Source: Schmidtea polychroa
Taxonomy: Eukaryota
NCBI GenBank assembly: GCA_044892525.1
Contig: CM097886.1
Location: forward strand, 82,398,001 to 82,462,000
Length of the DNA stretch: 64,000 nucleotides
Direction: 5' to 3'
This document shows, piece by piece, positions 30,608 through 64,000 of the stretch. How positions within the stretch are numbered: position 1 is the stretch's first letter; each line of letters starts with the position of its first letter. Below the pieces are notes generated by a model. That model ran no database searches. It was not told where the DNA came from and worked only from the letters and a program-made list of their open reading frames with translations. The translations under genes were made by a program, and so were the position numbers.

Positions 30608-30964
30608 AAATAGTTCACCTTTCGATTCGGTTCCGCTCTCTGATCCAATCTCTTTTAACACTCCTTGTCTAACTTTTCAGTTTTTCTTATAATCCTTTTC
30701 TTTTAATTTTTTCCTCTAACTCCTACTGTCAGTTTCTTCTTCCCTACCTAAGGCTATCGCCGATTATGTGAATTTTGATTGTCCTTATATACTCCCATAA
30801 TCGGTGTAATTGTCCAATTTTTGACATAATTGGTTTTGACTTCTTTCGTTTTCATTCCCTAATTAGCTATTTCTGTTGACCCTCTTCGTAATTCCCCTTC
30901 TTTTGTTTACCCTTGTTTATTAGGCTCATTGGATTATTGCCCTCTGAATTCCTCGTTTGTTTAC
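30608..30964 (+). mobile_element. 5' part of an LTR-like unit interrupted by the Polinton-like element (continues at 40592-40994)
   Basis: Colinear with the 41-45 kb tandem unit up to ...cctcgtttGTTTAC. The remainder resumes exactly at GTTTACccttcc (40592). Confidence 0.85.
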
Positions 30965-31069
30965 AGTAGGTAGTTAGGAGCCCGCTGGAACAATTACCCC
31001 CCCCCCTGGGGGGGATAAACTGTTCCAACTCACATTTTTTGCTTTCAGGGATTTTTGGTCCAAATTTTT

Positions 31070-31680
31070 TTTTATCAGACTATAGTGAGGTGGGTCTCCT
31101 TGGTCCTGGGATTTTCAATACAAAATTTTTTTTTCAATACAAAAAGGCGGTCTTCAATAAAAAAGCCAGGGATTATTCACACTATAGTGAGGTGGGTCTC
31201 CTTGGTCCTGAGAATTTCAATAGAAAAAGGCGGTCTTCAATAAAAAAGCATGGGATTTTCAGACTATAGTGAGGGGTCTCGATTGATCCTGGGATTTTCA
31301 ATACAAAATTTTTTTTTCAATACAAAAAGGCGGTCTCAATAAAAAAGCATTGTAATTTAAGGTCTCAGGATATTTTCAATACAAAAAGCTGGTCTACACT
31401 AAAAAAGAGTGGTAATTTAAGGTCTCAGGATATTTTCAATACAAAAAGACGGTCTTCAATAAAAAAAGAGTGGTAATTTAAGGTCTCAGGATAGTTTCAA
31501 TACAAAAAGGTGGTCTACACTAAAAAACAGTGGTAATTTAAGGTCTTAGGATATTTTCAATACAAAAATCCGACTATCACTAAAAAAGCATGGAATTTTC
31601 TAGGTCAATTCAGGTGGGTCTTCTTGGTCCTGAGAATTTCAATAGAAAAAGGTGGTCTACACTAAAAAAGCGTGGTAAAT
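31070..31680. repeat. Tandem ~60-61-bp and related longer repeats inside the left TIR (mirrored at ~39860-40460)
   Basis: aatttaaggtctcaggatattttcaatacaaaaag recurs at ~31354, 31414, 31475 and 31536. Related actatagtgaggtgggtctc units lie upstream. Confidence 0.9.
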
Positions 31681-32093
31681 TTTTTAAAATAAAGCAAATT
31701 ATGGGTCTAAAAATTGAATTACAGTAAATTATGGGCTAAGATTTTAAAATTAAAGTAAATTAAGGTTCATATTTTTGAATTAAAGTAATTATAGGCTCAA
31801 ATTTTCGAATTAAAGTTATCAATGGGCTCAAGTAAGTTAATTAAGGTTCAAATTTTTAAATTAAAGTAAATAATGGTTCAAATTTTTAATTAAAGTAAAT
31901 CAAGGTCCAAAATTTTAAATTAAAGCAATGAATGGGCTCAAATAACTAAATTAAGGTTCTAAACAAAGTTAATTAAGGTCTAAATTTTAAAATTAAGTAA
32001 TCAATGGTAAAAAAATTTTAAATTAAAGTAATAATTTTTAAATAAGTAAATTAAAGTAATGTAATAAGTAAATTAAAGTAAGAAAGTAATAAG

Positions 32094-32423
32094 AAATATC
32101 ATAAAAATTTAATTAATGGACAAGAAAAAATTCTAATCATTAATCATCCAGTAAATTTTAAAAAAAATACTGATAATTCAAGTTGAATCAACTAAGATAA
32201 TAAATTAATAAGATAAAATCTAGTAGATAATTGATTTAGATTGAATAAATTAATTTTATTTCAATTAATTTATTCAATCTAAATCAATTATCTACTAGAT
32301 CTTATCTTATTAATTTATTATCTTAGTTGATTCAACTTAAATTATCAGTATTTTTTTTAAATTTACTGGATGATTAATGATTAGAATTTTTTCATGTCCA
32401 TTAATTAAATTTTTATGATATTT
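32094..32423. repeat. ~330-bp near-perfect palindrome just inside the left TIR
   Basis: Arms ~32094-32255 and 32263-32423 are reverse complements with a few mismatches. Loop TTATTTC. Confidence 0.9.
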
Positions 32424-33812
32424 ATTTTGAATAATTTAAATTTTTACAATTATTTAATCAATTTTTACCAAGTTATTGATGCCTTGAATTCAATTAATTT
32501 TTTCATCCAATTTTTCAAGTGAAGAGTATTTACTTTTAAAGATCAATTTGTTAATACAATGTTGTTGGTTGTTAGTAGTTGGTAGTTGATATCTGATTGA
32601 CTTTTTTAGATTTTGATAAGAAGATAGTGTATGCGATGAAGAATGTTTTGTATTTAATTGCTATTATTTTTATGTGTGGTTAGTTGATTGTTGGTACTAA
32701 GTTGTTGGTATCTTGTATCTGGTAGTTGGTACAGTGTTGTTAATTTCTCGATGGGTTTTGATGGTGGTTGTTAGTAACTAGTTGTAGGTATCTGGTTGTA
32801 AGTGTTTAGTATTTAGTTGTTTGAAACCTAGTTGTTAGTACATGGTAACCAGTTAATGGGTAGGTGAAGGGATTGAGAGTTACCAATATTGCAAGTGAAG
32901 AGGATTTTCTTTTAAAGATCTATTTGTTAGTACTTGATTGTTGATTGTTAGTACATGTTCGTAAGTTACTGGTTGATGATACTATGTTGTTGGTATCTTA
33001 TATTTGGTAGTTGGTACAGTGTTGTTTACTGATTGTTGTTATATAGTTGTAGGTTGATAATGCTTAGTACCTGGTTGATGGTGGTTGTTAGTACTTGGTA
33101 GGTTGTAGCTAGTTGTTAGTACTTAGTAGCTAGTTAATGGATTGGTGGGGGTTGAGTGCGACCAATACCCTAACGACTAATACCCTTACGACCAGTACCC
33201 TTAGGGAGTCAAAACATCCTGTCGGATAAACCCAGAGTATATATAATTGTTGCGGGTGGTTACTCGGATGACCCCTTTTAGTGCAGTTTTCAGTCTAGAA
33301 GGATGAATGCCCACATCGATTTCGCTCGTCCTTCGTTTTGTCATCGCCGAGCAGGACCCGCACATAACCTACATTCCAACATAGCACCCGTGAATTGCTT
33401 CACGTTGGAACTGTGCTATGCCGGCGAGACGCCAGTAAGCAGGTGAGCCAGCTCCTTCGGACTACTCCTTACTGAGGCCTCGACTTCCCAACCCTGACTG
33501 CCGATAGAAGGACTTACGTCTAATCATTCCATCGCCCATCGCAAGGTTCCTAGCTGGGGTTGCCAACTGACTAATGCTCCTCATTTTCTACGACTCTCAA
33601 TGTTATTCACCAGTTTTAGATCGACTATTTTAAGATAAACAAAAAAACACATATATAGACGAAAATGGTTTATTGTCAGAATTATTATACAAGTACATCG
33701 AACACATATATATATCAAAATTCCTAAGAATAGGGAAAACACAAGGGTAAGCAATGATGTCAGAAGATGTCCAGGTCTCTCTAGAAGATGAGGCCAGTTT
33801 ACGGAGCAATTC

Positions 33813-34592
33813 TCATTTTTCCCACTCCGAGTCGGCGAGTAACTCGTTTAAATCAAAGAATTCGGCGGCGTTTTCTTCCCATGTTACCCCGGCGGCGGAG
33901 ATGACTCGCCCTGGGATTCCGGTCGTTAGATCGACTACTATTGGATTGCTGTTGCCGTCGACTGGGGTGACGGTTGATGGCAGAATCCGTTTGGTGGAAG
34001 CCCGCTCTCGTTGCTTTCGTTTTCGTTCGGCTCGCGACAGTTGCCGACGTTTAGGTTTTGAAGCTGTTGAGGTTTGCACCATTGAGGACGAAGCGGTGTT
34101 TGGCTGCACTTTATTAGTTCCGGTGAGTACAATGTCTGGACCGCTGGGAGAGAGCTCGGTCTCCACGCACCCATGGCAGGACTTCCCGAGTGGAGATGAA
34201 GGCCCGCCCGAGATCTCGTGGTGCGCTGGAAAAAGATTACTGGCTTCATTAATTGGGATCTTCGCGATTCTCCTAGTGGTTGCTGCTTTGACGTATAACT
34301 TGTGCAGCGCCTCCGACTGCTCCTTTATTAGACTTCTCTGCGCCCGACTTTCGGAAATTAGCGCATCTCGACAGTGCTCGCTGCGGTGCAGCTTCTTCTG
34401 AGCCTCTTTCATCTGGGTAGGACTAAACCATGTCCCCTCTAACTCGTCTATTTTTCTTTTGTACTTTCCGATTTGGGCCTGCAGATCCTTGATGATTGAA
34501 TTCTTGTCGGAACAAGAGAAACAAGGTCTGAGAATGGTCTTGGAATTGGGTAACATTTTGGGTGACTGCAAGAAAAGATGGAAATGAACCAT
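33813..34592 (-). CDS. Orphan protein (CxxC + coiled coil + basic tract + acidic tail), 259-aa ORF, probably the last exon of a spliced gene
   Basis: Only long ORF in the element, and more GC-rich than its surroundings. Diverged homologue at 50335-50690. A pyrimidine tract plus CAG lies just upstream of the conserved region in both copies. Confidence 0.65.
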   Translation of the reverse strand: MVHFHLFLQSPKMLPNSKTILRPCFSCSDKNSIIKDLQAQIGKYKRKIDELEGTWFSPTQMKEAQKKLHRSEHCRDALISESRAQRSLIKEQSEALHKLYVKAATTRRIAKIPINEASNLFPAHHEISGGPSSPLGKSCHGCVETELSPSGPDIVLTGTNKVQPNTASSSMVQTSTASKPKRRQLSRAERKRKQRERASTKRILPSTVTPVDGNSNPIVVDLTTGIPGRVISAAGVTWEENAAEFFDLNELLADSEWEK

Positions 34593-36483
34593 AAATCAAA
34601 TCAATTAGAAGGTCGTCGTCTGGTCACATTTATATTTTACTGATCATAGTTGGTTTCATAGACATGAACGGGTGTATCAGCCAAAGAAATTATACTGCGC
34701 TATGTGTCCTCGTTCCCTTTGGGTCATTAATTGTAAGAAAATAAATCAGTCAAGCGCGATTTTGCACAAGTAAGGAGAGGTATTACTACTGGTGAGAGGA
34801 ATTCTAGGTCGAGGAAACTACGGTTATCTAAATCGCTTGAAGTTAGTAATTAACGTTTGAAGAGAGTTGAATTACATTGCCGACTTTTCCTAACGAATAG
34901 TTTCGATGAATGTATCCTGTACGTAGGTCGATGAATTTTAGATTAATTATTTAGGGTGAATAGAAGTCCATAAATTATTCTTAATTAGTTCATTTATGAT
35001 GTACGGGAAGACATTATAAAAACAATTTTTAATTATTTATTTATGATAGGCGACAAATTATTCAACATGAGATAATAACTAAATTAATCCTACTAAGTAG
35101 ACAAAATCAGTCTGACAGTTGGCTATTAGTTCCGACCAGTGGGAATCTAATGACTGCGAGTGAATTCATTTGATAACCCGAAAATTCCAACTGACACGTC
35201 CGGTCGGGTTTGTCATGAGTACATGTCGGCGTGAATCTACACACCGTGATTAGCTACTGTAGTGTGTCTGAAAACGGGTGACGCATGCAAGTTTTTATTT
35301 CTCATACTTAATCCCACTCCTAATCACTAACTGGTGCCCTCAACTGTTTACCTACTGGCATGTTCTCTGGCTACTATCTCGATCAACTCACTGCACAGAT
35401 GCTCCGATTTCCCTACTCATGATGATGTCATACTAATTCTCACGGAAATGCTGGAAAAATTATGATTCTCGGTATTGCAAGAGTTGGGTATAATTTGCCC
35501 CCCAGGGGGGAACTGCCTAACTCCTCAATTGCGGTGTATTGATCCGTTCCGGATATTTTGGAGGTTTCCTACCTATCCTCGCTGGATTTTCAACTCCATG
35601 AAACACGGTAATTTATGTTTACTAGGTAAGGATTATCATGTTAGAGTGGTTTGTAGAAAAGAAAAATATATTTTTTGACTCGATTTGATTGCGTTTTACT
35701 CTTGAGATTATTTGGCACTAAACAGTTTATGTAATTAGAAAAATTTGTGGAAGTTAATCCCTTTATATAATTCTAAAAGCAATTGAAGCAAATCATTTTT
35801 TGCAATTCAAAAATAGTTGAAGTAACCCGTTTTACGTAATTCGAAATTTTATGCGAGACAACTTGTTCATGGAATTCTAACGCTCATCCGAGACTACTTA
35901 TTTTCTGTAATCCCCTGCAACTACATCTTTGAGAGAACACGTAGACGAGGAAACAATAGCACGGAAGGCCATAAAACACAGCAGGTATAAATTTCGAGTG
36001 AAACGTACGAATATCGAAGATATGTCACCTATAGCATTTGAACGACTCTCGATGAGCAACCTGCATAGAGCTTTAGAACGATAGAGGAAATTAGAACTTA
36101 GTAGAAACGATAATCTTGAGACGATAGTGTGACTCCCTCAATCACTGCGCGAATACATAAAAACTCTCTGATCGTTTCTTCCTACATCTGTTTTCCATTG
36201 CTATACGACTTTCAATTTTCTGGCAACATTTTCCTATGGAATTTAGTCGCACCTTCAGCGACGGACCCGTGAGGAAGCCCCCACATTACGGCCCGAATCA
36301 GCTGCGTGATTGAAATACTCTAGGCCCACCGGTGGAGCTCCCGAGGGCACCTCACACCATGACACTAGAGTATCCAACGCCACGTTTCTCGAAAATTTGA
36401 ATGGCATTAAATAATAACTCATTAAAACAGTTCATAAAAGTCAATAATTCCTAGAAATCAATCATGCATAGCAAATCATTTAT

Positions 36484-37254
36484 TGTTAAATACTAAATCG
36501 TTAAATTACACCAAGTATTCGGAATCAAACGAAAAGAAAACAAGTTCTTTAAATTAAAATTATAATTAAATCATACGCATAACTATTACTTTAAAATTCA
36601 AATTATGAAATCAAAAGATCCTTACCGAGTGTTTAATAGAGGTATAGGCTGAGTCGAAAAGGGGTACTGTGTCGAAGTAATAAATGTTCGAAATTATCTA
36701 GATTCGGCTGAAATTTCTTGGATTTCCGGAATAGTCCTCGTGAGTTGCTGTGGATTGATTGTTTAATTGCGGTTTCGTCGTAGAATGGATCTATTGAGGT
36801 GGTTAGATTAACTGTCGATTATTTTAAACTTTACTTACCTATTGAGGTGGTTAGATTAACTGTAATTATTATGATTTTAATACCTGCTTATATATTAATT
36901 TTTTGTTTGCGCGGACCAATCAGAATTGAGTACCGCTTAATTTTATTAATTTAATTTATTTTCCTTGTTTTAGAGTTATTTCTTCTTATTTTCTTTATTA
37001 AAATTATGTTTTTTATTTATTTTCCTTAATTTTCCTTATTATTTATTATATTTTGCGTTATTTTCTGTCATTCTAATGTCCTATTTCAATTTTTCTTATT
37101 TTTATATTTTTTTCTTGTTTTAATTCTTATTTCTAATTATTGTTTTTCTTATGTTCTATTCTATTTTATTCGTCAATCTATTTATTTTATTTCTTATTTT
37201 TACTTTAGTTAAATTCGACCTAATTTCCCAGCTACCCTTCGATTCAGCCCAACA
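36484..37254 (-). mobile_element. Possible solo LTR inside the Polinton-like element
   Basis: Bounded by TGTT...CCCAACA (the reverse complement of the TGTTGGG LTR start seen elsewhere). Flanks TTAT/TAAT are not a perfect TSD. Confidence 0.3.
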
Positions 37255-37559
37255 TAATAAAACTGATCAACAATAAGTATTTATTGAATACGATTTTTAC
37301 ATTGCAATAATAAGTCAGTAGTAATCAATTAAAAGAAGAATGTTTTGTAAATTAGAATTCATTAGTCTTTCATTGTAATTTAAATTATCCTGAATTCCAC
37401 GTGTTGTTTTAAAGTGGTTGAGTTGTGTTTTTTTGATGAAAATCAACATTTTTGTTAAATTTAGACATTTTGAAAAGGTTTTTCTACTGATTTTAATTAA
37501 ACATATTTTTGAAGACAGATAAAAAATTAATTTAAAAAACATTTTATAAAATACAATGA

Positions 37560-39100
37560 AGAATATTTAGTAGGTTTTTGTAGGTATCTAGTTGTTTGAG
37601 AGTTAGTTAGTACGTGGTATCATGTTGAAAGTATTTGGTACTTATTTGTTAGCACCTAGTTAAAAATATTTAGTAACCGATTGTTGGTAACTGTTGAATT
37701 ATTATTATTATTATTATTATTCCATTAAAATTTTCATAAATATTTTTCATTAAAAATTAACTTAAAAAATTTTACATTTAAAATTAACCTAAAAAAACTT
37801 CCATTTAAATTTTCATTAAAAATTACATTTCTCAAAAAAGTTGGTGGTTATTCAATCTTTTGATAATAAATTTAAAAATCTTACTTTAATTTACTTATTT
37901 AGCTTTAATTTAAAATTTGAACCATTGGTTAATTAATTTTAAATTTTGAACCTTAATTTTCCTTAATTTATCCTTAATTTACCTAATTATTCTTTATTTC
38001 TTAATTTTACACCATAATTTACTTAAGAACTAAATGTAATCCTTATTTTCATATTTAACCAATAATTTCATGTGGTCATTGATTAATTGACGAAGATTTG
38101 CATCTAAAATTAACATTGAAAATCCCAGAAAAACTTTCATCTTAAATTGACTTTAATATTTTAGATCATTGATTAGTTAATTTAAAAATTAAACATTAAT
38201 TTACCTATTTAACAAATAATTTCATGTGGTCACCTGGTTGTAAGTGTTTGGTATCTAGTTGACAGTGCTTAGTACTTGGTATCTAGTTGTTAGTACTTGG
38301 TTGATAATGCTTAGTTGCTGGTTGTTGTCGGTTGTGAGTAGTTGGTATCTGGTAGTTAGTTGTTAGCTGGTTGTAACTAGTTAATGGGTAGGTGGTTGTA
38401 GGTACTTGGTAGCAGGTAACTGATTGTTAGTATCTAGTTGTAGGTATCTGGTTGATGTTGGTTGTATTTACTTGGTATCTGGTACCTAGTTGGTTGGTTG
38501 TTTTTGGTTGTTAGTATCTAGTTGCAGGTACTTGGTAGTTGGTTAATAATGCTTAGTACTTGGTTGTTGTTGGTTGTATGTACTTGGTAGGTAGTTGTAG
38601 GTACTTGGTAATTAATGCTTAGTACCTGGTTGTTGTTGGTTGTTAGTACTTGGTAGGTGGTTGCTAGTTGTTAGCTGGTTGTAGCTAGTTAATGGGTAGG
38701 TGGTTGTAGGTACTTGGTATCTAGTTGTTAGTATCTAGTTGTGGGTATCTGGTTGATGTTGGTTGTAAGTAGTTGGTAGGTGGTTGTCGGTACTTAGTAG
38801 TTGGTAATTAATGCTTAGTACCTGGTTGATGTTGGTTGTAGGTACTTGGTAGTTGGTTGTTGTGGGTTGTAAGTAGTTGGTAGGTTGTAGCTAGTTGTTA
38901 GTTGGTTTTTTTTAGTTGTTAGTACTTGGTAGGTGGTTGTAGGTACTTGGTTGATAATGCTTAGTAGCTGGTTGTTGTCGGTTGTGAGTAGTTGGTATCA
39001 GGTTGTTAGTAACTAGTTGTAGGTATCTGGATGTAAATACATGTTCGTAAGTTACTGGTTGTTGGTACTAAGTTGTTGGTTTGTTGTTGAATTATTATTA
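37560..39100. repeat. GT-rich degenerate short-period repeats (gttgttagtacttggta-like); also at 32530-33160
   Basis: Strongly C-poor on the plus strand. Duplicated together with the following AT-rich block (37690-38000 vs 39085-39500). Confidence 0.85.
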
Positions 39101-41224
39101 AAATTTGTCTTTGAAAAATATTTCATAAAAATTTTCATTAAAAATTATCTTAAAAATTATTCCATAAAAATTTCTATTAAAAATTAACTTAAAAAATTAT
39201 TCTATAAAAATTTCCATTAAAAATTACCATTGAAAAATATTTCATTAAAATTTCTATTAAAAATTACTTAAAAAATTATTTGATAAAAATTTTCTTTAAA
39301 AAGTTTCAATTCTCAAACACCTTCTATTATTTCAACTTTTTGTTAATAAATTTAAAAATCTTACTTTAATTTACTTATTACATTACATTAATTTACTTAT
39401 TTAAAAATTATTACTTTAATTTAAAATTTTTTTACCATTGATTACTTAATTTTAAAATTTAGACCTTAATTAACTTTAATTTAATTTTTTAGAACCTTAA
39501 TTTAGTTATTTGAGCCCATTCATTACTTTAATTTAAAATTTTGGACCTTGATTTATTTTAATTAAAAATTTGAACCATTATTTACTTTAATTTAAAAATT
39601 TGAACCTTAATTTACTTAGTTGAGCCCTTAATTAACTTTAATCTTAAATTTTGAACCATTATTTACTTTAATTTAAAAATTTGAACCTTAATTAACTTAC
39701 TTGAGCCCATTGATAACTTTAATTCGAAAATTTGAGCCTATAATAACTTTAATTCAAAAATATGAACCTTAATTTACTTTAATTTTAAAATCTTAGCCCA
39801 TAATTTACTATAATTCAATTTTTAGACCCATAATTTGCTTTATTTTAAAAAATTTACCACGCTTTTTTAGTGTAGACCACCTTTTTCTATTGAAATTCTC
39901 AGGACCAAGAAGACCCACCTGAATTGACCTAGAAAATTCCATGCTTTTTTAGTGATAGTCGGATTTTTGTATTGAAAATATCCTAAGACCTTAAATTACC
40001 ACTGTTTTTTAGTGTAGACCACCTTTTTGTATTGAAACTATCCTGAGACCTTAAATTACCACTCTTTTTTTATTGAAGACCGTCTTTTTGTATTGAAAAT
40101 ATCCTGAGACCTTAAATTACCACTCTTTTTTAGTGTAGACCAGCTTTTTGTATTGAAAATATCCTGAGACCTTAAATTACAATGCTTTTTTATTGAGACC
40201 GCCTTTTTGTATTGAAAAAAAAATTTTGTATTGAAAATCCCAGGATCAATCGAGACCCCTCACTATAGTCTGAAAATCCCATGCTTTTTTATTGAAGACC
40301 GCCTTTTTCTATTGAAATTCTCAGGACCAAGGAGACCCACCTCACTATAGTGTGAATAATCCTTGGCTTTTTTATTGAGACCACCTTTTTGTATTGAAAA
40401 AAAAAATTTTGTATTGAAAATCCCAGGACCAAGGAGACCCACCTCACTATAGTCTGATAAAAAAAAATTTGGACCAAAAATCCCTGAAAGCAAAAAATGT
40501 GAGTTGGAACAATTGCATAATAAAAAGTTGGAACAATTTACCCCCCCCCCCCTGGGGGGTAATTGTTCCAGCGGGCTCCTTACTACCTACTGTTTACCCT
40601 TCCAAATTGTCGTGCTCAGGTTTTCTTCATTGCTCGGGTTCTCCATTAGCTCGAACTTCCCATTAGCTCGGGTTTCCCATTAGCCAATTAATTAATTAAT
40701 TATTCGTTTTTTCATATTTGTCTGTTTTACGACCCTTTCTAAATATTTTCTAACAATTTCTTGCTTACTGTCTTCTTCACCATCCCTTAATCTACCCCTC
40801 TTCCGTTTTCCAGCTTCAATTTCGATAACTTTTCACTTTATTCCACTTCCTCAGGTTTGCGCATTTTTTCCATTTCATGTCTGATTGTACCCTTTTATAG
40901 TTCTTTTTTATCATATCTTTCTTTGCCATTGCTTCTCTGCTTGACCGCCATTCAATTTCGGTTTTCCTTTTAATCAGAACTATATAATTTAATANNNNNN
41001 NNNNNNNNNNNNNNNNNNNNNNNNNNNNNNNNNNNNNNNNNNNNNNNNNNNNNNNNNNNNNNNNNNNNNNNNNNNNNNNNNNNNNNNNNNNNNNNNNNNN
41101 NNNNNNNNNNNNNNNNNNNNNNNNNNNNNNNNNNNNNNNNNNNNNNNNNNNNNNNNNNNNNNNNNNNNNNNNNNNNNNNNNNNNNNNNNNNNNNNNNNNN
41201 NNNNNNNNNNNNNNNNNNNNNNNN

Positions 41225-42193
41225 TAAAATCAACCGTTGGTTACTCTGACTCCACGTGTTCCAAAATCAATAAACACAAACTCCCAACCTATATTTGTTT
41301 TATAACAATTCACAACTCAACAATTAATCACACTGTTGGTTAATCACAATTCTTACACAATTTCAGATCGAACTCCCTCTGGAAGGTCTCGGCCTTGTAC
41401 GATTTAAAAAATAGGTTTCACCTTTTGTTTGATTCCGCTCTCTGATCCGAACTCTTTTAATATTCCTTTCTGACTCCTAAATTCCTCTTATAATTCCTTT
41501 TTCCTTTTTATTTTTATTCCTCGAACTCCTATCGTCTGTTTCTTCGTATCCCTACCTAAGGCTATCGCCGATTATGTGAATTTTGAGTTTCCTTATATAC
41601 TCCCATAATCGTTGTAATTGCCCCATTTTTGACCTAATTGGTTTTGACTTCTTCAGCTATCATTCCCTAATTGACTATTTTTGTTGACCCTCTTCGTAAT
41701 TCCCCGTCTTTTGTTTACCCTCGTTTATCCGGTTGTTTGGATAATTGCCCTCTGAATTCCTCGTTTGTTTACTCTTCCAAATTGCCGTGCTCGGGTTTTC
41801 TTCATCGCTCGGGTTCTCCATTGGCTCGGGCTTCCCATTAGCTCGGGTTTCCCATTAGCCAATTAATTAATTAATTAATATTTTACGTTTTTCCACATTT
41901 GTCTGTTTTACGACCCTTTCTACACATTTTCTAACAATTTCTTGCTCACTGTCTTCTTCACCATCCCTTAATCTATCCCTCTCCCGTTTTCCAGCTTCAA
42001 TTTCGATAACTTTTCACTTTATTCCACTTCCTCAGGTTTGCGCATTTTTTCCATTTCATGTCTGATTGTACCCTTTTATAGTTCTTTTTTATCATATCTT
42101 TCTTTGCCATTGCTTCTCTGCTTGACCGCCATTCAATTTCGGTTTTCCTTTTAATCAGAACTATATAATTTAATAATTTACTTTTAAAACATC

Positions 42194-42278
<85 letters not shown>

Positions 42279-44373
42279 GTGTTGGGTTTTATGATATTAA
42301 AATCAACCGTTGGTTACTCTGACTCCACGTGTTCCAAAATCAATAAACACAAACTCCCAACCTATATTTGTTTTATAACAATTCACAACTCAACAATTAA
42401 TCACACTGTTGGTTAATCACAATTCTTACACAATTTCAGATCGAACTCCGCTCTGGAAGGTCTCGGCCTTGTACGATTTAAAAAATAGGTTTCACCTTTT
42501 GTTTGATTCCGCTCTCTGATCCGAACTCTTTTAATATTCCTTTCTGACTCCTAAATTCCTCTTATAATTCCTTTTTCCTTTTTATTTTTATTCCTCGAAC
42601 TCCTATCGTCTGTTTCTTCGTATCCCTACCTAAGGCTATCGCCGATTATGTGAATTTTGAGTTTCCTTATATACTCCCATAATCGTTGTAATTGCCCCAT
42701 TTTTGACCTAATTGGTTTTGACTTCTTCAGCTATCATTCCCTAATTGACTATTTTTGTTGACCCTCTTCGTAATTCCCCGTCTTTTGTTTACCCTCGTTT
42801 ATCCGGTTGTTTGGATAATTGCCCACTGAATTCCTCGTTTGTTTACCCTTCCAAATTGCCGTGCTCGGGTTTTCTTCATCGCTCGGGTTCTCCATTGGCT
42901 CGGGCTTCCCATTAGCTCGGGTTTCCCATTAGCCAATTAATTAATTAATTAATATTTTACGTTTTTCCACATTTGTCTGTTTAACGACCCTTTCTACACA
43001 TTTTCTAACAATTTCTTGCTCACTGTCTTCTTCACCATCCCTTAATCTACCCCTCTCCCGTTTTCCAGCTTCAATTTCGATAACTTTTCACTTTATTCCA
43101 CTTCCTCAGGTTTGCGCATTTTTTCCATTTCATGTCTGATTGTACCCTTTTATAGTTCTATTTTATCATATCTTTCTTTGCCATTGCTTCTCTGCTTGAC
43201 CGCCATTCAATTTCGGTTTTCCTTTTAATCAGAACTATATAATTTAATANNNNNNNNNNNNNNNNNNNNNNNNNNNNNNNNNNNNNNNNNNNNNNNNNNN
43301 NNNNNNNNNNNNNNNNNNNNNNNNNNNNNNNNNNNNNNNNNNNNNNNNNNNNNNNNNNNNNNNNNNNNNNNNNNNNNNNNNNNNNNNNNNNNNNNNNNNN
43401 NNNNTAAAATCAACCGTTGGTTACTCTGACTCCACGTGTTCCAAAATCAATAAACACAAACTCCCAACCTATATTTGTTTTATAACAATTCACAACTCAA
43501 CAATTAATCACACTGTTGGTTAATCACAATTCTTACACAATTTCAGATCGAACTCCCTCTGGAAGGTCTCGGCCTTGTACGATTTAAAAAATAGGTTTCA
43601 CCTTTTGTTTGATTCCGCTCTCTGATCCGAACTCTTTTAATATTCCTTTCTGACTCCTAAATTCCTCTTATAATTCCTTTTTCCTTTTTATTTTTATTCC
43701 TCGAACTCCTATCGTCTGTTTCTTCGTATCCCTACCTAAGGCTATCGCCGATTATGTGAATTTTGAGTTTCCTTATATACTCCCATAATCGTTGTAATTG
43801 CCCCATTTTTGACCTAATTGGTTTTGACTTCTTCAGCTATCATTCCCTAATTGACTATTTTTGTTGACCCTCTTCGTAATTCCCCGTCTTTTGTTTACCC
43901 TCGTTTATCCGGTTGTTTGGATAATTGCCCTCTGAATTCCTCGTTTGTTTACTCTTCCAAATTGCCGTGCTCGGGTTTTCTTCATCGCTCGGGTTCTCCA
44001 TTGGCTCGGGCTTCCCATTAGCTCGGGTTTCCCATTAGCCAATTAATTAATTAATTAATATTTTACGTTTTTCCACATTTGTCTGTTTTACGACCCTTTC
44101 TACACATTTTCTAACAATTTCTTGCTCACTGTCTTCTTCACCATCCCTTAATCTACCCCTCTCCCGTTTTCCAGCTTCAATTTCGATAACTTTTCACTTT
44201 ATTCCACTTCCTCAGGTTTGCGCATTTTTTCCATTTCATGTCTGATTGTACCCTTTTATAGTTCTTTTTTATCATATCTTTCTTTGCCATTGCTTCTCTG
44301 CTTGACCGCCATTCAATTTCGGTTTTCCTTTTAATCAGAACTATATAATTTAATAATTTACTTTTAAAACATC

Positions 44374-44413
<40 letters not shown>

Positions 44414-45409
44414 GTGTTGGGTTTTATGATATTAAAATCAACCGTTGGTTACTCTGACTCCACGTGTTCCAAAATCAATAAACACAAACTCCCAACCTAT
44501 ATTTGTTTTATAACAATTCACAACTCAACAATTAATCACACTGTTGGTTAATCACAATTCTTACACAATTTCAGATCGAACTCCCTCTGGAAGGTCTCGG
44601 CCTTGTACGATTTAAAAAATAGGTTTCACCTTTTGTTTGATTCCGCTCTCTGATCCGAACTCTTTTAATATTCCTTTCTGACTCCTAAATTCCTCTTATA
44701 ATTCCTTTTTCCTTTTTATTTTTATTCCTCGAACTCCTATCGTCTGTTTCTTCGTATCCCTACCTAAGGCTATCGCCGATTATGTGAATTTTGAGTTTCC
44801 TTATATACTCCCATAATCGTTGTAATTGCCCCATTTTTGACCTAATTGGTTTTGACTTCTTCAGCTATCGTTCCCTAATTGACTATTTTTGTTGACCCTC
44901 TTCGTAATTCCCCGTCTTTTGTTTACCCTCGTTTATCCGGTTGTTTGGATAATTGCCCTCTGAATTCCTCGTTTGTTTACCCTTCCAAATTGCCGTGCTC
45001 GGGTTTTCTTCATCGCTCGGGTTCTCCATTGGCTCGGGCTTCCCATTAGCTCGGGTTTCCCATTAGCCAATTAATTAATTAATTAATATTTTACGTTTTT
45101 CCACATTTGTCTGTTTTACGACCCTTTCTACACATTTTCTAACAATTTCTTGCTCACTGTCTTCTTCACCATCCCTTAATCTACCCCTCTCCCGTTTTCC
45201 AGCTTCAATTTCGATAACTTTTCACTTTATTCCACTTCCTCCGGTTTGCGCATTTTCCCATTTCATGTCTGATTGTACCCTTTTATAGTTCTGTTTTTAT
45301 CATATCTTTCTTTGCCATTGCTTCTCTGCTTGACCGCCATTCAATTTCGGCTTTCCTTTTAATATGAACTATATAATTTAATAATTTACTTTCAAACCCT
45401 CAACAATAG
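41225..45409 (+). mobile_element. Tandem array of four ~1-kb solo-LTR-like units separated by (AAT)n
   Basis: Equivalent positions at 41225, 42298, 43405 and 44433, with near-identical units. The last unit, 44415-45405, is TGTTG...CAACA flanked by the 4-bp TSD ATAG. Confidence 0.8.
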
Positions 45410-45751
45410 TAATAATAATAATAATACCCTTATGAGATGTTGAGTGTAACCAGTACTCTTGTGAGCAATACTCATAAGGGGACAAAAATATCTTGTCGGA
45501 TAAACTCAGATTATACCTTTTGTTTGATATACATAATATAAGGTTTTGAAAAAATTCAAAGGTTTTTAACCCTTTGAAGGTTATTGAACCTCCATAGACC
45601 TTCGATGGTCTCAAATACTCACCATTCAAATACCTTTCGAATGAGCTATTAAATAATAAAACCCATTGGCGGGAATTTAAATGTTAAAAATTTAGCATGA
45701 CTCTTTGCATAACTCACCGCGTGACTCATACGACCTTGAGAATGACCTTGA

Positions 45752-48153
45752 ATGAGTCATAAAACGAGTCATATAACCTTGAATATGGAGCGGACGACTC
45801 TATACTCAATGCCAGAAAATAAATATATCGAATTTAAAGACTGGAGTAAAACTTTAAAACAGCAGTTTGTTGTCTACGCGGACTTTGAATCGATATTACC
45901 TCTAGATGACAAACACTTCCAAAAACATGAGCCGATTGCATCTGAATTTGTGCTTCTTCATCAAGGTTGTTCAATCCGAAATAAAACATTTGTTGGGAAA
46001 AACTGTATCATTCAGTTCATACAAGCATTGGATGATAAAGCTACAGACATAGTTTATCCGTGGTATAAAATTAATGGATCAAAGGAAATGATGGAACTCA
46101 CTTGGGAACAGCAGGAAGAATTTACAAACCAAACTCATTGCTACCTTTGTAAAAAGATCATCAATATACCTGTTCGAGATCATGATCATTTTACTGGTCA
46201 ATATCTCGGAGCAGCATGTTAAGATTGCAACTTGGCTAGAAGAATCAATCCGTCTTTACCTGTTGTATTTCATAATCTTCGTGGATATGACATTCATCAT
46301 ATATTAAAATATGCAATTGGAAAATTCCCGATTGAAATTTAATTGTTATTCCTCAATCAACAGAAAAATTTCTCACACTTACAGCGACATCGAAAGGCAG
46401 AAGAATTAGATTCATTGATTCTTTAGAATTTTTAAATAGCAGCTTGACAAATTTATCAAAAAACTTGCCACGTCTTCCACTGACCTCAGATGTTTTCGAA
46501 TCACAGATGATGACTTGTAAAACTATTTTTCCTTATGATATGGCTACGTCAATGGATGTTTTACAGTCAATAACAGCATTACCACATATTTGCGAAGGAG
46601 AAGATTATATACATGCAAATCAAATCTGGCGACAATACAACTGTGAAATATCTGAAGTTGGATGTTTTTCTATTAGCAGGTATTTTTGAGGCTTTCAGAG
46701 AAAAAACATTTGACAAAGATGGACTTGAGGCTCTGTCGTTTGTTTCCATATCTGGATTACGTTGGACATCAGCTATTAAACAATCAACTGAACCGATAGA
46801 ACTTATTCAAGATCCAGAATTTTACCGTTTATTTGAAGCTGGTATTTGTGGTGGAATGATATTTATCAACAAACACCATGTTGAAGCTGATGAATCCACA
46901 CAAATGTTATACCTAGATGTTAATGATTTATATGGATGGGCTCTGTCGCAAAAACTTCCTATTGGTGAATTTAGATGGTTAAAAGATCAGACTGAAATGG
47001 ATAGTATTATTAAAAGATGTATGAATGGAGATGAGTTTGATGGAGATCGTGGATATGTTTTGGAGGTTGACATCGTCATTCCAGATAGTATACAGGATAA
47101 ACTAGATGATTTACCTATAGTTCCTGAGCTTTGTTATCCGCCTGGAAGTAAAGTTGAAAAGTTGTTATTAACACACGAACCAAAGACCAATTATGTGATT
47201 AATAGTAGAGTTTTGACTGAATGGTTGAGTTACTACACAAAAGTCACAAAAGTTGATCGCGCTGTAGAATTCAAGCAAGTAGCTATTTTCAAAGGCTATA
47301 TTGATTACAATACTCAAATGAGAGCAGCTAGTACAGATTCATTTCAGCGAGATTATTATAAGTTAAAGAACAACAGTTTATACGGTAAAACTGTGGAAAA
47401 CCTTAAGAAACGTATAAACCTGAGATTATGCAGCAAAAGCAAAAGATTGATAACTTATTGTAGTAATCCTATGTATCGTCGTAGAATCAAGATTGCGGAT
47501 GATTTCATTGCTGTTATACTTGATAAGGAAATGGTGTGTTTAGATAGACCAATGTATATTGGACAAACCGTACTTGATTTATCTAAACTTCGTATGTAGC
47601 AGTTTCAATATAAAGAACTACAGAGTTATAGAGAAAAGTTAAATTGTCAAATTAATATCGTAGCCGGTGACACAGATTTCTTCTTTTAAGAGTGTAAAAA
47701 TATTGATTTACGCTTATAACTGTATCCAAAAATGATTGCCGATGGGCTCCTCAGAAAAAATTTGTTCGGTAATCGGGAAAGTCAAGGATGACAATAAAGG
47801 AAATCAATATAAAGAATGGGTGTTTCTTCGACCCAAGTGCTACTCACTTCAAGGCGATAAAACACTCTAAAAGCCAAAGGAATAAGACTTACAAATTCAA
47901 GTCTTACACATGAAGCTTATAAAAAGTGTATACTGATGGTGGAACAGTCAGCATCCCACAAAAAAGAATAGGAAGTGTCAATCATCAGTTGTATACTTTC
48001 TTGACAGAAAAACGAGCTCTCCAATTTTTGGACGATAAAAGGTATTGGTACAATTCTAATGAAAGCTATACCTACGGTCACTATAAGATTTGTCAAATGC
48101 ATATTGCAACTGCTATGTCTAGAAATGAATGCAAATCGAAACAAGCACTTTAA
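45752..48153 (+). pseudogene. Protein-primed DNA polymerase B, Polinton/Maverick type, copy 1
   Basis: Exo I YADFES; zinc/endonuclease-VII-like insert (CYLC...VRDHDHFTGQYLGAAC..CNL); exo II FHNLRGYD; motif A YLDVNDLYGWA; motif B KLKNNSLYGK; motif C AGDTD. Multiple stops and frameshifts. Confidence 0.9.
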
Positions 48154-48474
48154 CAATTAAATTTATGTGAATAATAAATATATATTGTGAATTATTTGAC
48201 TTAGTTAATTAAAATGTGTTCTATCATTTAATTATTCATTTGTCCAATTAATTTAGATAATTAGTTTCAAGTAAGAAGTATTATTTTCGTGTTTATTTTA
48301 TTTATTTATTTATTTTATCAGAAAAAATTATTATCCGGTTTATTAAAATTAACTCAGCGTTTTATTTTATAATAAATTAAATAATTACTATTTAAAGATT
48401 TGATCAAATTGAAATATTCTTGTTATAATTTTTGTTCTTGGTAGAATAAATTAAATGTAAATGTAAAAAAAAAT

Positions 48475-48481
48475 AAATAAA

Positions 48482-48545
<64 letters not shown>
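48475..48545. repeat. (AAT)n microsatellite within an AT-rich tract
   Basis: Directly visible. Confidence 0.9.
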
Positions 48546-48849
48546 TATTAATAAATAAATATAATAATATTAATTATAATTTAAAATTTATTAAGATTTA
48601 AACCGAAGAAAATAAAAATATAATTAAATAGCATAAGTAATTAAAATAATTAATTAATTAATTATAATAAAATAACTAAATAGAAGTAATTAAATTAAAA
48701 TAATATAATAATAAATATATAATAAAATAATTAATTAATTAATGTAATGAATTTAAAATTAACAAAAGTATTAATTAAAATCAAATAATAATAACAATAT
48801 AATAAAAAGTAATAAATTAAATAGATGAAAGTAATTAAATTAAATTAAA

Positions 48850-49100
48850 AAAATGATTCGATTGGCCTATATTTCATCTTGATATTCCATGACCTTGAAC
48901 TTGAAAGTGAGCTGGAGTCCTCATTATATACTACTGACTTGTATATATTTTATATAGTGTGTTTATATGATCCAGTGGTTGCCGATTTAATAAAACTATA
49001 TAGAATGTGTGAATATTTGATCTAGATAAAACCCTGAAAATTTACGTGAAAAACTTTGAAAATGACGTTAGGAAACTGTTCTCTTAGAGTTAATTAGAAG
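48850..49100 (+). repeat. Non-coding block downstream of pPolB copy 1, related to 56130-56700 downstream of copy 2
   Basis: Shared GATCCAG(T/C)GG motifs, taaaactatatagaat and gatct...aaaac(c/t)ctgaaaa. Confidence 0.55.
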
Positions 49101-50334
49101 ATATATAATTCAATGAATGTCATATAAAATTAAATATGAGGCCCTTCACAACATGATCCTTGATTACCATACGTATTACTAAATCAACTAAATTAATCTA
49201 AATGTAAAAATAAAAACAAAGAACAAATTTCGAATAAATCCTATCAATATACAATTATTGTTACAAGGCTTAAGTCATGAACTGTTCATTGTGATAGTTC
49301 TACCAAAGATAACTGGTAGTTGGGAGAACTATGTGAATTGACCTCTGCGTTGGACAGGAGTTCATTCAAGTTGAACAGGACGTCATCTTCCATGTCCACA
49401 ACGAAGGAGAGATCGGTCAGATCGGATTGGGTTCTGTTATTGGTTCGGTCACTCAAAATTAGCCTGAGACTGCCGCTTAATGTGTTGTTTCTCATTTCGC
49501 AACGCGCCATGCAGATGTTTACATTTTGATTTTTGAGCCTAGATCGATCCAGGAGTGGCCACTGTAATGTAATGTTAATTGTTTATGTACCATTTTTTAA
49601 ATGTAATTACAAATTACATTACTTAACTTAATTCGAGTCACGGCCCCCACAACCCAACGAAATGATCTATATAGTAATTCTCTATAGTAATAATTTACTT
49701 TAGAGAATTGAAAAATATAAAAATCAAACAAAAATCGAAAATTTGATAATAAAATTAGAAGACTTATAAATTAAGAAACCCATCAAAAGCTCCATAATAT
49801 AAAAACGACTGAATCGAAATTATCCTTTATTTGAGAAAATCCATCAAGAGTTTCGAAATTTAAAATGAACAGATCTGAAGTCCTTATTTTTCGAGAAAAT
49901 CCATTGGTAGTTTCAAGGCATAGAATAACAAATTAGAAGTTTCAAAGCATAAAATAGTAAAATTGAAGTTTTATTTATTTAGTAAGATCTGTCGAAATTT
50001 AGGAACATAGAAGTGATAGAATTCGAATTATCAATCCTACCCCAAATTTCAAGGTTCATACTTTTTTTATAAATAAAAGTTGTAAATTTATTTAATTGTT
50101 ATTGTTATTTATTTAATTGTCGCTATTTTATACAACATACATGCAAGCACTCCAGCTGTCCCGAGACAGTACTTTTAAAGGAGACTTGGCTGGGTACTAC
50201 AAGATTTCTTCAACAAGTCAATTATTTAGGTATAAACTATCACATATAGAAATTAAGATATGTAACTATAATAGCCACCATACTAAGATCTATCAATGGT
50301 GGTGGACCTTCGGCTGATTCAGTTCCGTCACGGA

Positions 50335-50690
50335 AAGGTGATGACCAATGATCACATTTGCCACTTTTGCCAATGGAAAATTTTGGATCCTTGATTATAA
50401 TTCAGCCTTAGTATAGACCTGATTTAGAGCGTGGGCCTTTTCCTGTATGAAGCTTCTCTGAACCCGACTTTCATCTATGACCCCATCTCTACAATTCTCC
50501 AGGTATCGAATCTTTAGTTGAGCCTCTTTCATCTGTGCGGGCTTAAACCAAGTGCTCTCGAGGCGGTTGATTTTGGCATCAAGGAACACGATCTTTGTGT
50601 CTCGTAAACAGGTCGTTTCATTCTTATCTGCGCAGGGGAAGCAAGGTTTGATAGATGAATTAGTTGATATAATATGTTGTACTGAAACAT
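50335..50690 (-). pseudogene. Diverged copy of the orphan CxxC/coiled-coil gene
   Basis: KPCFPCADKN...KINRLESTWFKPAQMKEAQLKIRYLENCRDGVIDESRVQRSFIQEKAHALNQVYTKAEL*SRIQNFPLAKVANVIIGHH aligns without gaps to RPCFSCSDKN...KIDELEGTWFSPTQMKEAQKKLHRSEHCRDALISESRAQRSLIKEQSEALHKLYVKAATTRRIAKIPINEASNLFPAHH. One in-frame stop. Confidence 0.8.
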
Positions 50691-52568
50691 CAAGCGAAAG
50701 ATATGAAAAAACATAAGAGTCGTAAAATTTAGGGATCTGGCGATCCGGGAATCAGTGGCTGGAATAAACCAAGCCAACATGGTGATGACAATGATGATAA
50801 TACTCTAATAATAGCATCATAATAATACTCTTAGTANNNNNNNNNNNNNNNNNNNNNNNNNNNNNNNNNNNNNNNNNNNNNNNNNNNNNNNNNNNNNNNN
50901 NNNNNNNNNNNNNNNNNNNNNNNNNNNNNNNNNNNNNNNNNNNNNNNNNNNNNNNNNNNNNNNNNNNNNNNNNNNNNNNNNNNNNNNNNNNNNNNNNNNN
51001 NNNNNNNNNNNNNNNNNNNTTAGTAGTTATAACTTATATAAAGAAAAACTTATTAAACCCATTTTGGTTAGTCCTGATAACAAACACTGGGGTTATGATA
51101 AACTACTACTGAATATAGAATGGTGATTATCTAGCACTTGAGATCTGATCTTAATAATGGTGAGTCTCAATCATGAAAAATTTCTACTGCATCTAGGCGC
51201 AAAAACAATTTGTAGGGCCCATCATTACCTAAATTATTTGTATCGAAACTACAAGTTTATGAGGATTTATGGATCTAAATTATACTGGCCAACTCTACTA
51301 ATCCTAGTGGGCAGTTTCAGCTATTGATGAGTTATTGGTCAATTAAATTCACTGCATGTTTTTATCATTATATTTCTATTAAAGTTCTCAGAGTTTATAA
51401 CTATAAAGAATGACATAAACAAGATAATATTTTAAATTAATAAAAAATACATATTTAACAAATTATACAAAGCACATTAAAAAAGCAACTATGAATTTAC
51501 CAAATCGTACGATAAAATTCCGGAAATAGATCAAATTAAATTTGATTGTGTAATAATTTTTTATATTGGTTACGTAAATATAAAAAGGTGTTATATATTA
51601 TGTTATATATTATATATTATTATCGGCTTATATATTATTTTGTTAGTTTGTTCAACCAATGAGGGTTGGTCACGCCTACGCTTTTGATCAAATTGTTTCT
51701 TAATTTTTCAATTTAAATTAAAATCAATCTGATTAGTCGATTTTATTTTTTGTATTAATTGTTTGTTTTTCTATTTATTCCTTCTCTTTTTTCATTTCCC
51801 TGATTGATTGAACAACCATCTTTTATACCAGTATTACCCCTTGGACAAGCTAATATTTTTTGCTATTTTGTGTTTTAATGCATTAAAATGTGTTCCTTGT
51901 GTAACTGCTTGCACGTCTTAGTTTACTAATTTAATTTATTATTTTGGTTTTGTGTAGTTTTGTATTGTTTTATCTTTTAATATATGCTGTGCGTACGCAG
52001 AAAAGCTTATTCTTTCAAGAGTTTAATTAGAAAACCCCCAAAGAAAATAAATAAATAATACATTTTTAATTAAAAATTTTATAATTAATTTTTGCACCAA
52101 CAAGAAGCTAAAAAAACAAATTTATTTTTATTTACGATAGACGTCATATTTTAAAAAACAATTGTTGATTAGTACTTTAAATGCATTTCATTTGTTTTCG
52201 TTCCACGATTTGAGTGAAGTCACTTATGAAAATTTATAAAATTTCTAAATCAGATTGGCAGGAATTTTGTGCATTCAGGATTGTAAAAAGAAAGAAGAAA
52301 AAAAAATGAAAATCAATAANNNNNNNNNNNNNNNNNNNNNNNNNNNNNNNNNNNNNNNNNNNNNNNNNNNNNNNNNNNNNNNNNNNNNNNNNNNNNNNNN
52401 NNNNNNNNNNNNNNNNNNNNNNNNNNNNNNNNNNNNNNNNNNNNNNNNNNNNNNNNNNNNNNNNNNNNNNNNNNNNNNNNNNNNNNNNNNNNNNNNNNNN
52501 NNNNNNNNNNNNNNNNNNNNNNNNNNNNNNNNNNNNNNNNNNNNNNNNNNNNNNNNNNNNNNNNNNNN

Positions 52569-53359: not shown

Positions 53360-55150
53360 AAAATTTACCGTATGCTGACTTTGCTTGGGTGCATGAAAAT
53401 CTGAATGATGTGCTATTGAATGTATGAATGAGAATATTGAAAACCTTTTATGTGGCTATACTATGAAGGTTAATATTGATATTCCTGAATGTCTGCATAA
53501 TTTTTTTAATGATTTTCCTATCGCTACGGAAAAGATGTGTCCATCGAACTCCAAAGTTGAGAAGCTGATGGTCACGAATTTGCCCAAGAAGAACCATGTT
53601 CTTCATTGGATGCTTATTAAACTTTATCTTTCATTCGGTGCGAAGGTTGTTAAAATTGATCGTGCAATTAAATTTAAACAAGTACCTATATTTAAGGCAT
53701 ATGTAACGTTCAGGATGTATTTTTAGCTATTGTTATTTTGTTAGTATTATCGTATTTGTATATCCCTATTTATTTATATAGTAGTATTTATATGATTTGT
53801 GATTGGGTGTAGAGATCTGAAGAGCCCGAAAGAGTCACCGTTAAAAAATGTGGCGGGACAATTGGGGTGCGTGTTGTGTAGAAAAGGTATAAAATAACAG
53901 TTAAATAAAATTACAAATTTTATTAACCAAAAAAATAAATAATACTTCAGAAAATCGTCAGGTGGCTATGATTAGACTGTTATTTGCAATATATATGATA
54001 TCAGGATTTGGCAGAGTAATTGACTGCGAAGATCCAACACAAATATCGAATTTATCTATATAATAGAGGGGGAGGATTCGATAAAGAATTTTGAGCTTGA
54101 AATTTCTTCGATTAATTTTCGGATGAATTCGCTTAGTGTCAAAAATATACCTATCACACGACCTCTTTCTTTAACTTTGAAGTTCCTGATTTCTAAAATA
54201 TTGTACTGATAGATTAACTAGTAGAGTTATATGGTATCTTTTTCTTTTGTAGTAATCTTGTGAATGGCTTTTTAATAGGTGCTTGGCAGGACTTCCGACT
54301 GTAAATATTCTATTTTTCTTATCTTTGAATTGCTAATTCTTATTATCGATTTTTTAGTATTTTGTTCAATATTTATAGAGCGATAATTTACTATGGTAAA
54401 TTATCGCTATATAGTCTCTTTATTCCATTTCCGCGACATACGCTAGACGAAATAGACAGACATCACGTACCCTTACTTAGAAATAAAAAAGAATATGACT
54501 GTACATTACAGCATATATAAATAAAAACACCGAATTAAGACCACAATCGACAAAAGAGTCATATAGAGACTTGTTTAAGTTGTATAACAGCAGTTTATAT
54601 AGTAAATCCACTGAGAATCTGAAAAGACATATAAATTTGAGGCTATCCAATTCAGCTGAAAAGATAATTGTATATGTCTCAAAACCGACTTTCAGAAAAT
54701 CCATCAGAATTAATGATGATCTGATTGCTGCTCATCTAAATAAGGGTTTGATATGTTTTGACAGACATAGTTACATCGGTCAATCAGTACTATATCTGTC
54801 TAAACTGCGGATGTATCATTTCCAATAAAACTAATTGTCGAAATAAAGGGATGAATTTAATTGTGAAATTAACATTGTTGTGGGCGACACAGACTACTTT
54901 TATTTTGAGATTAAGTTCTGTAAAATTGACACTCTTTTGCTGGCAATGCTCAGAGACAGCTTTATAGATACCTCTAATTACGAACCTGCTCACCTTTCAT
55001 ATTAAAGGAGTTTTGATTCGGCTATAGGAAAATTTAAAAATGAAAGTAAGAGGCTAGGTTATAGTGAATGGGTTTTCTTACACCAAAAGTGTTATAGTCT
55101 TTAAGGCAATAAACCAACACTAAGGGCTAAGAGAGTTAAATTACCAGGAA
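53360..55150 (+). pseudogene. Protein-primed DNA polymerase B, Polinton type, copy 2 (C-terminal half), split by a solo LTR
   Basis: QNLPYADFAW...KVEKLMVT...FKAY|INKNTELR...KLYNSSLYSKSTENL...YIGQSVLYLSKLRMY...VGDTD is colinear with copy 1 but clearly diverged. Confidence 0.85.
53702..54510. mobile_element. 809-bp solo LTR inserted in pPolB copy 2
   Basis: TGTAA...TTACA termini and 5-bp TSD GCATA (53697-53701 and 54511-54515). Removal restores the frame FKAYINKN. Confidence 0.9.
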
Positions 55151-62520: not shown

Positions 62521-62944
62521 CGGGGAATTTCCTTTCGCTAGTTTCACATTTTGTCTCAGAAATATACAGATATAAAAGTATTTCATATAAGATTATATAT
62601 ATTTCAATTATAGTTGAAAATGTTTTCATTTTTATTAAATATATAAATCGCAGCAAAAGGCTTAAGTTATCATTTAATTGGTTAATATTATTATCATTAT
62701 TAAACGATTAAATATAAGGACATATAAGGTTAAATAATTATGAATTTGTTGTTGATGACGGATAAATTAATGAAAACGATGAAAATGTTGACCCAGATAT
62801 TGTTGAAAATTATGTAGATGACAGAAAAATTGATTAAGACGAGCTTATAGACATAGATGATGTCTTGTTATCAGACTATGATGAGGGCTTTTATTAAATA
62901 AACGATGTATTATAGTTTTGTTTTCTTTTATATCTATTTAAGTG

Positions 62945-63815: not shown

Positions 63816-64000
63816 ATTTACCTTTGATTTTTACTAAAGGTCAATCATTTTAAAAAATATAGGGATATCTTTTAACTTATAATGTTGGTTTTACTAATTT
63901 CACTTTATTCAGAAGTTGTTTCAAAAATATATTAAAATGAAAACAATTTTCAAATATAATGTGTGGAGAATTTAACTAAATATAAATAATATTCCGAGCA

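Follow-up and report, generated by a model that had tools for sequence, protein, structure and literature searches.

The window considered here, a stretch of 64,000 nucleotides from Schmidtea polychroa (GenBank assembly GCA_044892525.1, contig CM097886.1, positions 82,398,001 to 82,462,000 of the forward strand), holds two loci of Polinton/Maverick character. Element A, which retains both of its long terminal inverted repeats (TIRs), is classified from its sequence as a new non-autonomous Polinton-type element, not an autonomous member, and locus B as a decayed fragment of a Polinton from a cousin subfamily. At both, a short non-coding block precedes a gene without a recognised family, here called the orphan, which lies downstream on the minus strand, and at locus B only a gene for a protein-primed B-family polymerase (pPolB) stands between the two. 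This layout, described in an earlier note on this DNA, is borne out by the orphan alignment (41 of 83 residues, or 49%, identical; pairwise E 3e-27) and by recognition of the polymerase through Pfam family PF03175 (E 1.8e-17) and a profile of 45 full-length relatives; the same note had called element A gene-less, which is incorrect, its open reading frame (ORF) at 33813-34592 being open for 259 codons. We consider it likely that A and B are independent deletion remnants of two long-diverged subfamilies of one Polinton clade.

Element A begins with AGTAGG and finishes with CCTACT, flanked by copies of GTTTAC, and the empty GTTTAC site is unbroken in all four sister copies of the host repeat unit of ~1.07 kb. 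Its left and right TIRs align with 1,102 matches and 16 mismatches over 1,118 bases (98.6% identical by substitutions; three gaps span 24, 81 and 9 bases, and two more a single base each), and so few differences point to a young insertion. The available part of one source gives as Polinton hallmarks TIRs of 100-1500 bp, target-site duplications (TSDs) of 5-8 bp and a length of 13-25 kb (10.1101/2023.08.22.554363); the TIRs (1,119 and 1,233 bp) and the 6-bp duplication of element A fall inside these ranges, and its 9,627 bp fall below the last. Polinton ends are described, in the accessible portion of another source, as of (AGT)2 or (AG)3 type with a 6-bp TSD (PMC8097293), and those of element A match five of the six letters of the vertebrate (AGT)2 motif, differing at the sixth base. 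A C-run/G-run hairpin lies just inside each terminus (30982-31029 and 40527-40574), on which both of the only two Rfam matches fall, each sub-threshold; a C/G run resembling these hairpins also occurs in the interior, near 35497-35511. The two GT-rich tracts of the element lie on the same strand as direct repeats (score 283 on the same strand, 19 on the opposite one) and are thus not part of the TIR.

Apart from the orphan, element A has no plausible long ORF. The profile of 45 pPolB relatives, which found all three pPolB pieces elsewhere in the window, found none here, and the N-terminal parts of 39 pPolB relatives gave scores inside the shuffle range for element A and nothing above shuffles in the spacer of either locus, a control scrap at 14 kb scoring 124. 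The six read-through frames of 33250-36902 gave no Pfam match, in an insensitive scan that also missed the known pPolB copy 2, and no integrase, ATPase, protease or capsid gene was recognised in element A, where the Pfam scan is insensitive to decayed genes. A mostly open frame with several stops and no Pfam match, at 35850-36410 (+), may be another accessory gene of the element, now decayed. In element A the block is followed by two strong splice-donor-like sites and by acceptor-like ones (33435-33619, +), with none of these at locus B; a single contig from one public run (run X1, n = 1) connects 33529 to 33808 with unknown sequence between, and neither 33250-33640 nor 36200-36400 folds better than its shuffles (z -0.84 and -1.20). 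Outside the element, a fragment at 62940-63230 resembles its inner right arm and is flanked by 85% identical inverted repeats (61878-61987 and 63897-64000).

The block spans ~76 bp at each locus, and its best local alignment scores 63-64, against a mean of 32 and a maximum of 47 in 60 dinucleotide shuffles on both strands of the window, and maxima of 32 (copy A as query) and 38 (copy B as query) in 838 background tiles; BLASTN aligns 67 columns at 74.6% identity (E 8e-7). An exact 12-mer of the block core occurs in the window at 33220 and 45494 only, and a tile scan of the 64 kb found no third copy beside the two. The shared block of the earlier note is thus real, at 33176-33251 and 45449-45524, minus its proposed start, since ‘aataccctta’ at 45422 is not colinear and aligns only by pairing different 15-bp repeat units across gaps of 14 and 16 bases. 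A GT-rich tract precedes copy A; an AAT tract and tandem units, without a GT tract, precede copy B. Both copies (two of two) lie in Polinton-type contexts, each co-oriented with the minus-strand orphan downstream. As ~75% identity has been kept while the silent sites of the neighbouring gene are saturated, we regard it as most likely that the block is a cis element conserved in the Polinton end region, and its position ahead of pPolB together with the TATA-like end in element A makes a putative promoter of the rightward (pPolB) transcript its probable role. Searches with the block pattern found no loci in viral and metagenome contig collections.

Orphan copy A combines long N-terminal helices of coiled-coil-like character, a basic Arg-rich helix and an acidic tail. 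Copy B is split by a 711-bp insertion with short orphan matches on both sides (p 0.006 each, best of three frames); the 3′ match (score 38, p 0.006 in 500 shuffles) is not the highest in the window, where an unrelated segment scores 39 among 1,288 segments, and copy B probably once reached ~49290. Over 83 codons the two orphans are 58% identical in DNA and differ at 35 first, 21 second and 48 third codon positions, and a nonsynonymous divergence (dN) of 0.39-0.44 beside a synonymous divergence (dS) of 1.4-5.1 indicates a real gene, past purifying selection and an old split. The intactness of the ORF in element A may reflect only the youth of that element; variants of the ORF in public runs amount to at least 16 sites (6, 2 and 8 on codon positions 1, 2 and 3), too few to use.

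A profile search of 1.84 billion representatives returned 13 orphan matches at E ≤ 0.001 (best 3.8e-10), one of which, P0112, with a match confined to a repeated N-terminal stretch, was set aside; the orphan domain is common to the remaining 12 distant relatives, most of them with an Arg-rich stretch downstream. Nine of the 12 carry an unrelated Pfam domain above cut-off, the fusion partners in animal gene models (P0104-P0116) being SLC6 transporter, actin, subtilase, PTP, CRAL-TRIO and others. Fusion of most relatives to unrelated host domains is the pattern expected of a repeat-borne gene, and the fusions are probably mis-spliced repeat exons caught in gene models. A further profile search yielded four matches (one new), a single-sequence search none among 438 candidates, a cluster look-up for ten relatives accessions with no informative names, Pfam nothing above cut-off, and an alignment against viral contig collections no related loci; the best Atlas matches (0.83 for the whole protein, 0.89 for its N-terminal part) are leads only. 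Among PDB sequences the best match, to Arg-rich nodavirus capsid arms (E 0.22), was judged compositional. The AlphaFold model (mean score on the predicted local distance difference test, pLDDT, 64; predicted template modelling score, pTM, 0.32) puts long helices at 28-110 and a basic one at 187-201; neither BFVD nor PDB matched it at E ≤ 0.001, and it resembles generic coiled coils only (Z ≤ 5.8); the fold searches gave no support for a stand-alone terminal protein or an adenovirus pVI-like protein.

At locus B, pPolB copy 1 covers positions 358-1163 of the 1,164-position profile, its N-terminal 357 positions being missing. It has 103 long relatives at E ≤ 1e-10 (best 64% identical), all 103 of which align from 45758 onward only, and among the full-length ones 76 begin to align before 45900, with a median of ~380 for their first aligned residue. 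The terminal-protein and vOTU domains of Polinton pPolBs sit in the missing part, according to the available text of one study (PMC11161782). The ~255 bp between block copy B and the start of pPolB homology at 45779 are too short for 350 codons, with or without introns, so that locus B is a deletion product too; the block does lie upstream of pPolB copy 1 as the earlier note proposed, ahead of a polymerase that is not whole and whose homology runs from profile position 358. No TIR or A-type terminus was found at or near locus B, and neither a TSD nor a linked integrase, at a locus that has a tandem repeat bordering it to the left and an N gap to the right; beside it, no further gene of Polinton type was detected, in a scan of the type that missed pPolB copy 2, and 12 read-through frames to its right gave no Pfam match, a weak negative. 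Searches for pPolB in metagenome and viral contig collections found no related loci.

Table 1. Positions in the window of the parts of element A and locus B
Feature	Position	Strand	Remarks
Element A	30965..40591	.	9,627 bp; classified as a non-autonomous Polinton-type element; AGTAG.../...CTACT ends, 6-bp duplication, long TIRs
Left TSD	30959..30964	+	GTTTAC
Right TSD	40592..40597	+	GTTTAC
Left TIR	30965..32083	+	1,119 bp; internally repetitive (Tandem Repeats Finder, TRF); terminal C/G hairpin
Right TIR	39359..40591	-	1,233 bp
Palindromic piece like a miniature inverted-repeat transposable element (MITE)	32091..32426	.	inner end of left TIR; 95.5% self-inverted
GT-rich tract	32560..33140	+	directly ahead of block copy A
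Shared block, copy A	33176..33251	+	15-bp repeat units, TGTCGGATAAAC core, TATA-like end
Spacer of element A	33252..33812	.	560 bp; block to orphan 3′ end; no locus B counterpart, no pPolB remnant
Orphan, copy A	33813..34592	-	intact 259-codon ORF
Remaining unique interior of element A	34600..36900	.	no recognised gene
Second GT-rich tract	38235..39090	+	no block after it; block scores 17 against 38900-39200
Tandem ~1.07-kb units	41225..45426	.	split by AAT tracts and N gaps; copies 97-99.5% identical
Shared block, copy B	45449..45524	+	
Spacer of locus B	45525..45778	.	block to pPolB; no pPolB N-terminal piece, no strong splice donor
pPolB, copy 1	45779..48090	+	decayed; five frame pieces, in-frame stops
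Probable 3′ piece of orphan copy B	49270..49557	-	weak match to acidic tail of copy A
711-bp insertion	49563..50273	-	5-bp duplication GCCAC; splits orphan copy B
Orphan, copy B, 5′ part	50279..50751	-	broken

Further pieces related to these loci are scattered through the window. pPolB copy 2 (53418-55194, +; profile 790-1112) has no block upstream and is 43-53% identical in protein to copy 1 where the two overlap, and a third piece (13869-14084, -) covers profile positions 245-313, an N-terminal region absent from copy 1. The 711-bp insertion in orphan copy B, related to an 809-bp TGT...ACA insertion in pPolB copy 2, can be read as an insert like a solo long terminal repeat (LTR). Three diverged copies of this insert occur (14090-14470, 49563-50273 and 53702-54510); two have defined ends, which are TGT...ACA with 5-bp duplications, and all three lie in or beside Polinton pieces, namely by the pPolB scrap, in orphan copy B and in pPolB copy 2. 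The tandem units of ~1.07 kb that form the left boundary of locus B are the same unit that served as target for element A; they have TG...CA-like ends, sit in AAT microsatellites and number four near-identical copies, which, being partly separated by N gaps, are possibly a scaffolding artefact. The copy hit by element A (30608-30964/40598-40994) is 88.5% identical to unit 1 on the left and 96.2% on the right, an asymmetry that is unexplained.

The interiors of element A and locus B share two colinear landmarks only, with no clean breakpoint between them. The element A spacer (33250-33650) has no match elsewhere in the window (best tile 36, median 24), and the interior beyond the orphan has none in locus B or elsewhere in the window. 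Had block and orphan been placed independently of the three pPolB pieces, the arrangement at locus B would have arisen with a chance of ~7e-5, a rough, post hoc figure, and this, together with the Polinton-type context of both blocks, makes shared ancestry the best reading; block, pPolB and orphan are most likely parts of a single class of element. The synteny, put forward earlier as independent support for the Polinton assignment, lends such support at the level of this window and only there.

The ancestral end region may accordingly be pictured as a TIR, then the conserved block and pPolB on the plus strand, with the orphan facing them on the minus strand, from which two long-diverged subfamilies would have lost DNA independently. 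Element A would have lost pPolB and apparently other core genes, retained both ends, and recently inserted as a non-autonomous element, leaving the 6-bp duplication; going by known Polinton biology, an intact Polinton at another place in the genome would most likely have provided the polymerase and the retroviral-type integrase that copied and integrated it. Locus B would be an older fossil, which lost the terminal-protein/OTU third of pPolB, decayed and received later insertions.

Several observations weigh against this picture. No autonomous copy was seen that joins the element A TIR, block, pPolB and orphan, and in four public runs no joint (15 of 170 listed) or loose end (24 of 1,806 listed) leads visibly from the block into pPolB; metagenome and viral contig scans gave no orphan-pPolB link outside the window; no strong splice donor follows the block at locus B, which gives the promoter role no support there; the three pPolB pieces within 64 kb make a chance neighbourhood easier than usual; and the chance figure was computed after the layout had been seen. 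Summed contig depth, besides, is by far the highest on the stretch over the GT-rich tract and block, and this pattern, a hint only, would fit a self-spreading repeat too.

The coverage behind that last point comes from public runs. Of the words of 33100-36800, a fraction of 0.43-0.45 is present in four of 15 listed runs, all from one study, with no RNA run holding such words among the matches listed. Contigs of 80-100% likeness on 32430-36930 number 4,550, 17,403 and 4,346 in three runs, which we take to show a large, varied family, and summed contig depth over the block is 10-18 times that of the highest orphan bin in the same number of runs, a measure that only hints that the block is very common, as it neither yields a copy number nor allows parts to be ranked. 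In a run from another study 35148-36053 is almost devoid of cover, from which nothing can be concluded.

The alternative that survives best, unlikely as we hold it to be, makes the block and its GT-rich tract a high-copy dispersed repeat in its own right, the orphan a common repeat cargo and the order at locus B a coincidence; element A would still be of Polinton type by its ends, and the synteny would add nothing. The thousands of contigs and the peak in depth, as far as that hint goes, would then find a ready explanation, as would the two GT-rich tracts lying as direct repeats outside the TIR and the crowding of the window with three pPolB pieces and three solo-LTR-like copies. Such a repeat is, however, hard to square with a block that occurs just twice in 64 kb and each time has an orphan downstream, oriented the same way relative to it, or with a block copy B that has no GT-rich tract ahead of it and a second GT-rich tract that has no block.

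Likewise unlikely in our estimate is the idea that element A represents a Polinton satellite family which keeps one lineage-specific gene under its own selection along with a cis block recognised by a helper. The orphan would in that event be a predicted nucleic-acid-binding protein of no known family, coiled-coil, Arg-rich and acidic-tailed, and element A would supply a factor of its own to win helper replication or packaging, as viral satellites do.

We think it quite improbable that element A belongs instead to another superfamily, as a foldback-type element whose TIRs are long and repetitive and which acquired the block and orphan by capturing Polinton DNA. Its internally repetitive TIRs, its lack of a detectable pPolB, a length short of the 13-25 kb of intact Polintons and the sixth base that departs from the vertebrate motif would all sit comfortably with such an origin, but it is Polintons that combine AGTAG/CTACT ends with a 6-bp duplication, and no transposase family was matched in the element A interior (a weak negative).

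Least probable of all is the strict form proposed in the earlier note, in which element A arose from locus B's own lineage by internal deletion of pPolB and the 45.4-50.7 kb locus is its fuller relative: the common order and orientation of block and orphan, with pPolB in B only, had suggested it, but it is not supported, as the spacer and the interior beyond the orphan have no counterpart in locus B and the orphans (58% identical in DNA, dS >1) are diverged far beyond the age of element A (1.4% TIR divergence), while locus B itself has a truncated pPolB and no A-type terminus nearby.

Returning to the two-remnant reading, both loci can be set beside systems already described. Polinton/Maverick elements (polintoviruses; the HNH/endonuclease VII-containing pPolB group) resemble element A in long TIRs, a 6-bp duplication and AGT-type ends, and locus B in its polymerase, which is protein-primed, of the B family and has relatives with PF03175 and PF02945; they differ in that element A is 9.6 kb long with no pPolB and none of the other core genes recognised, that locus B shows no TIR and, of a pPolB now decayed, retains just the C-terminal 70%, and that the orphan is without a Pfam family above cut-off. 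Caenorhabditis Polinton remnants, in the available part of their description, comprise TIR-only insertions and partial pPolB-end remnants (10.1101/2024.01.15.575659) and are alike in retaining TIRs or the pPolB end with the rest lost, whereas element A retains both of its ends and has, besides a fresh duplication, one lineage-specific gene that is intact. Non-autonomous internal-deletion derivatives of TIR transposons such as Ds-del of maize, as far as the sources at hand describe them, are matched by element A in its retained termini, its lack of mobility enzymes and its presumed movement in trans, and differ in that element A has no identified parent, no clean breakpoint against B, and Polinton rather than hAT ends. 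A lizard survey notes, in its available portion, an apparent absence of non-autonomous Polinton copies (PMC3014272), and a preprint, likewise available in part, describes a Maverick expansion in dugesiid flatworms (10.64898/2025.12.11.693146), which gives context for how common such elements can be. Descriptions of non-autonomous forms are sparse in the literature searched, where ‘non-autonomous polinton’ was found for Tlr1 only and ‘non-autonomous maverick’ was not found. Repbase reportedly lists non-autonomous Polinton families.

The surrounding window is AT-rich and repeat-dense. It carries three similar, largely intronless amino-acid permease ORFs (15575-17245, 19610-21151 and 59642-61210; Pfam PF13520, the first one tested), a type IA topoisomerase gene with few large exons (6410-9119, -; Pfam PF01131, 6413-7726 tested), a broken LTR-retrotransposon pol with reverse transcriptase and integrase matches (24960-27647, -) and a hAT-like transposase remnant with a weak Pfam match (3133-4739, +). 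No tRNA was found in the 64 kb.

The picture of how Polintons work is left unchanged by element A and locus B. What they add is a short non-coding block and one accessory gene that outlasted the saturation of silent sites between Polinton subfamilies. The orphan stands for a protein family that lacks annotation and turns up as a contaminant in animal gene models; the block becomes a candidate for a functional cis element at the ends of Polintons and may serve as a probe for classifying non-coding Polinton derivatives.

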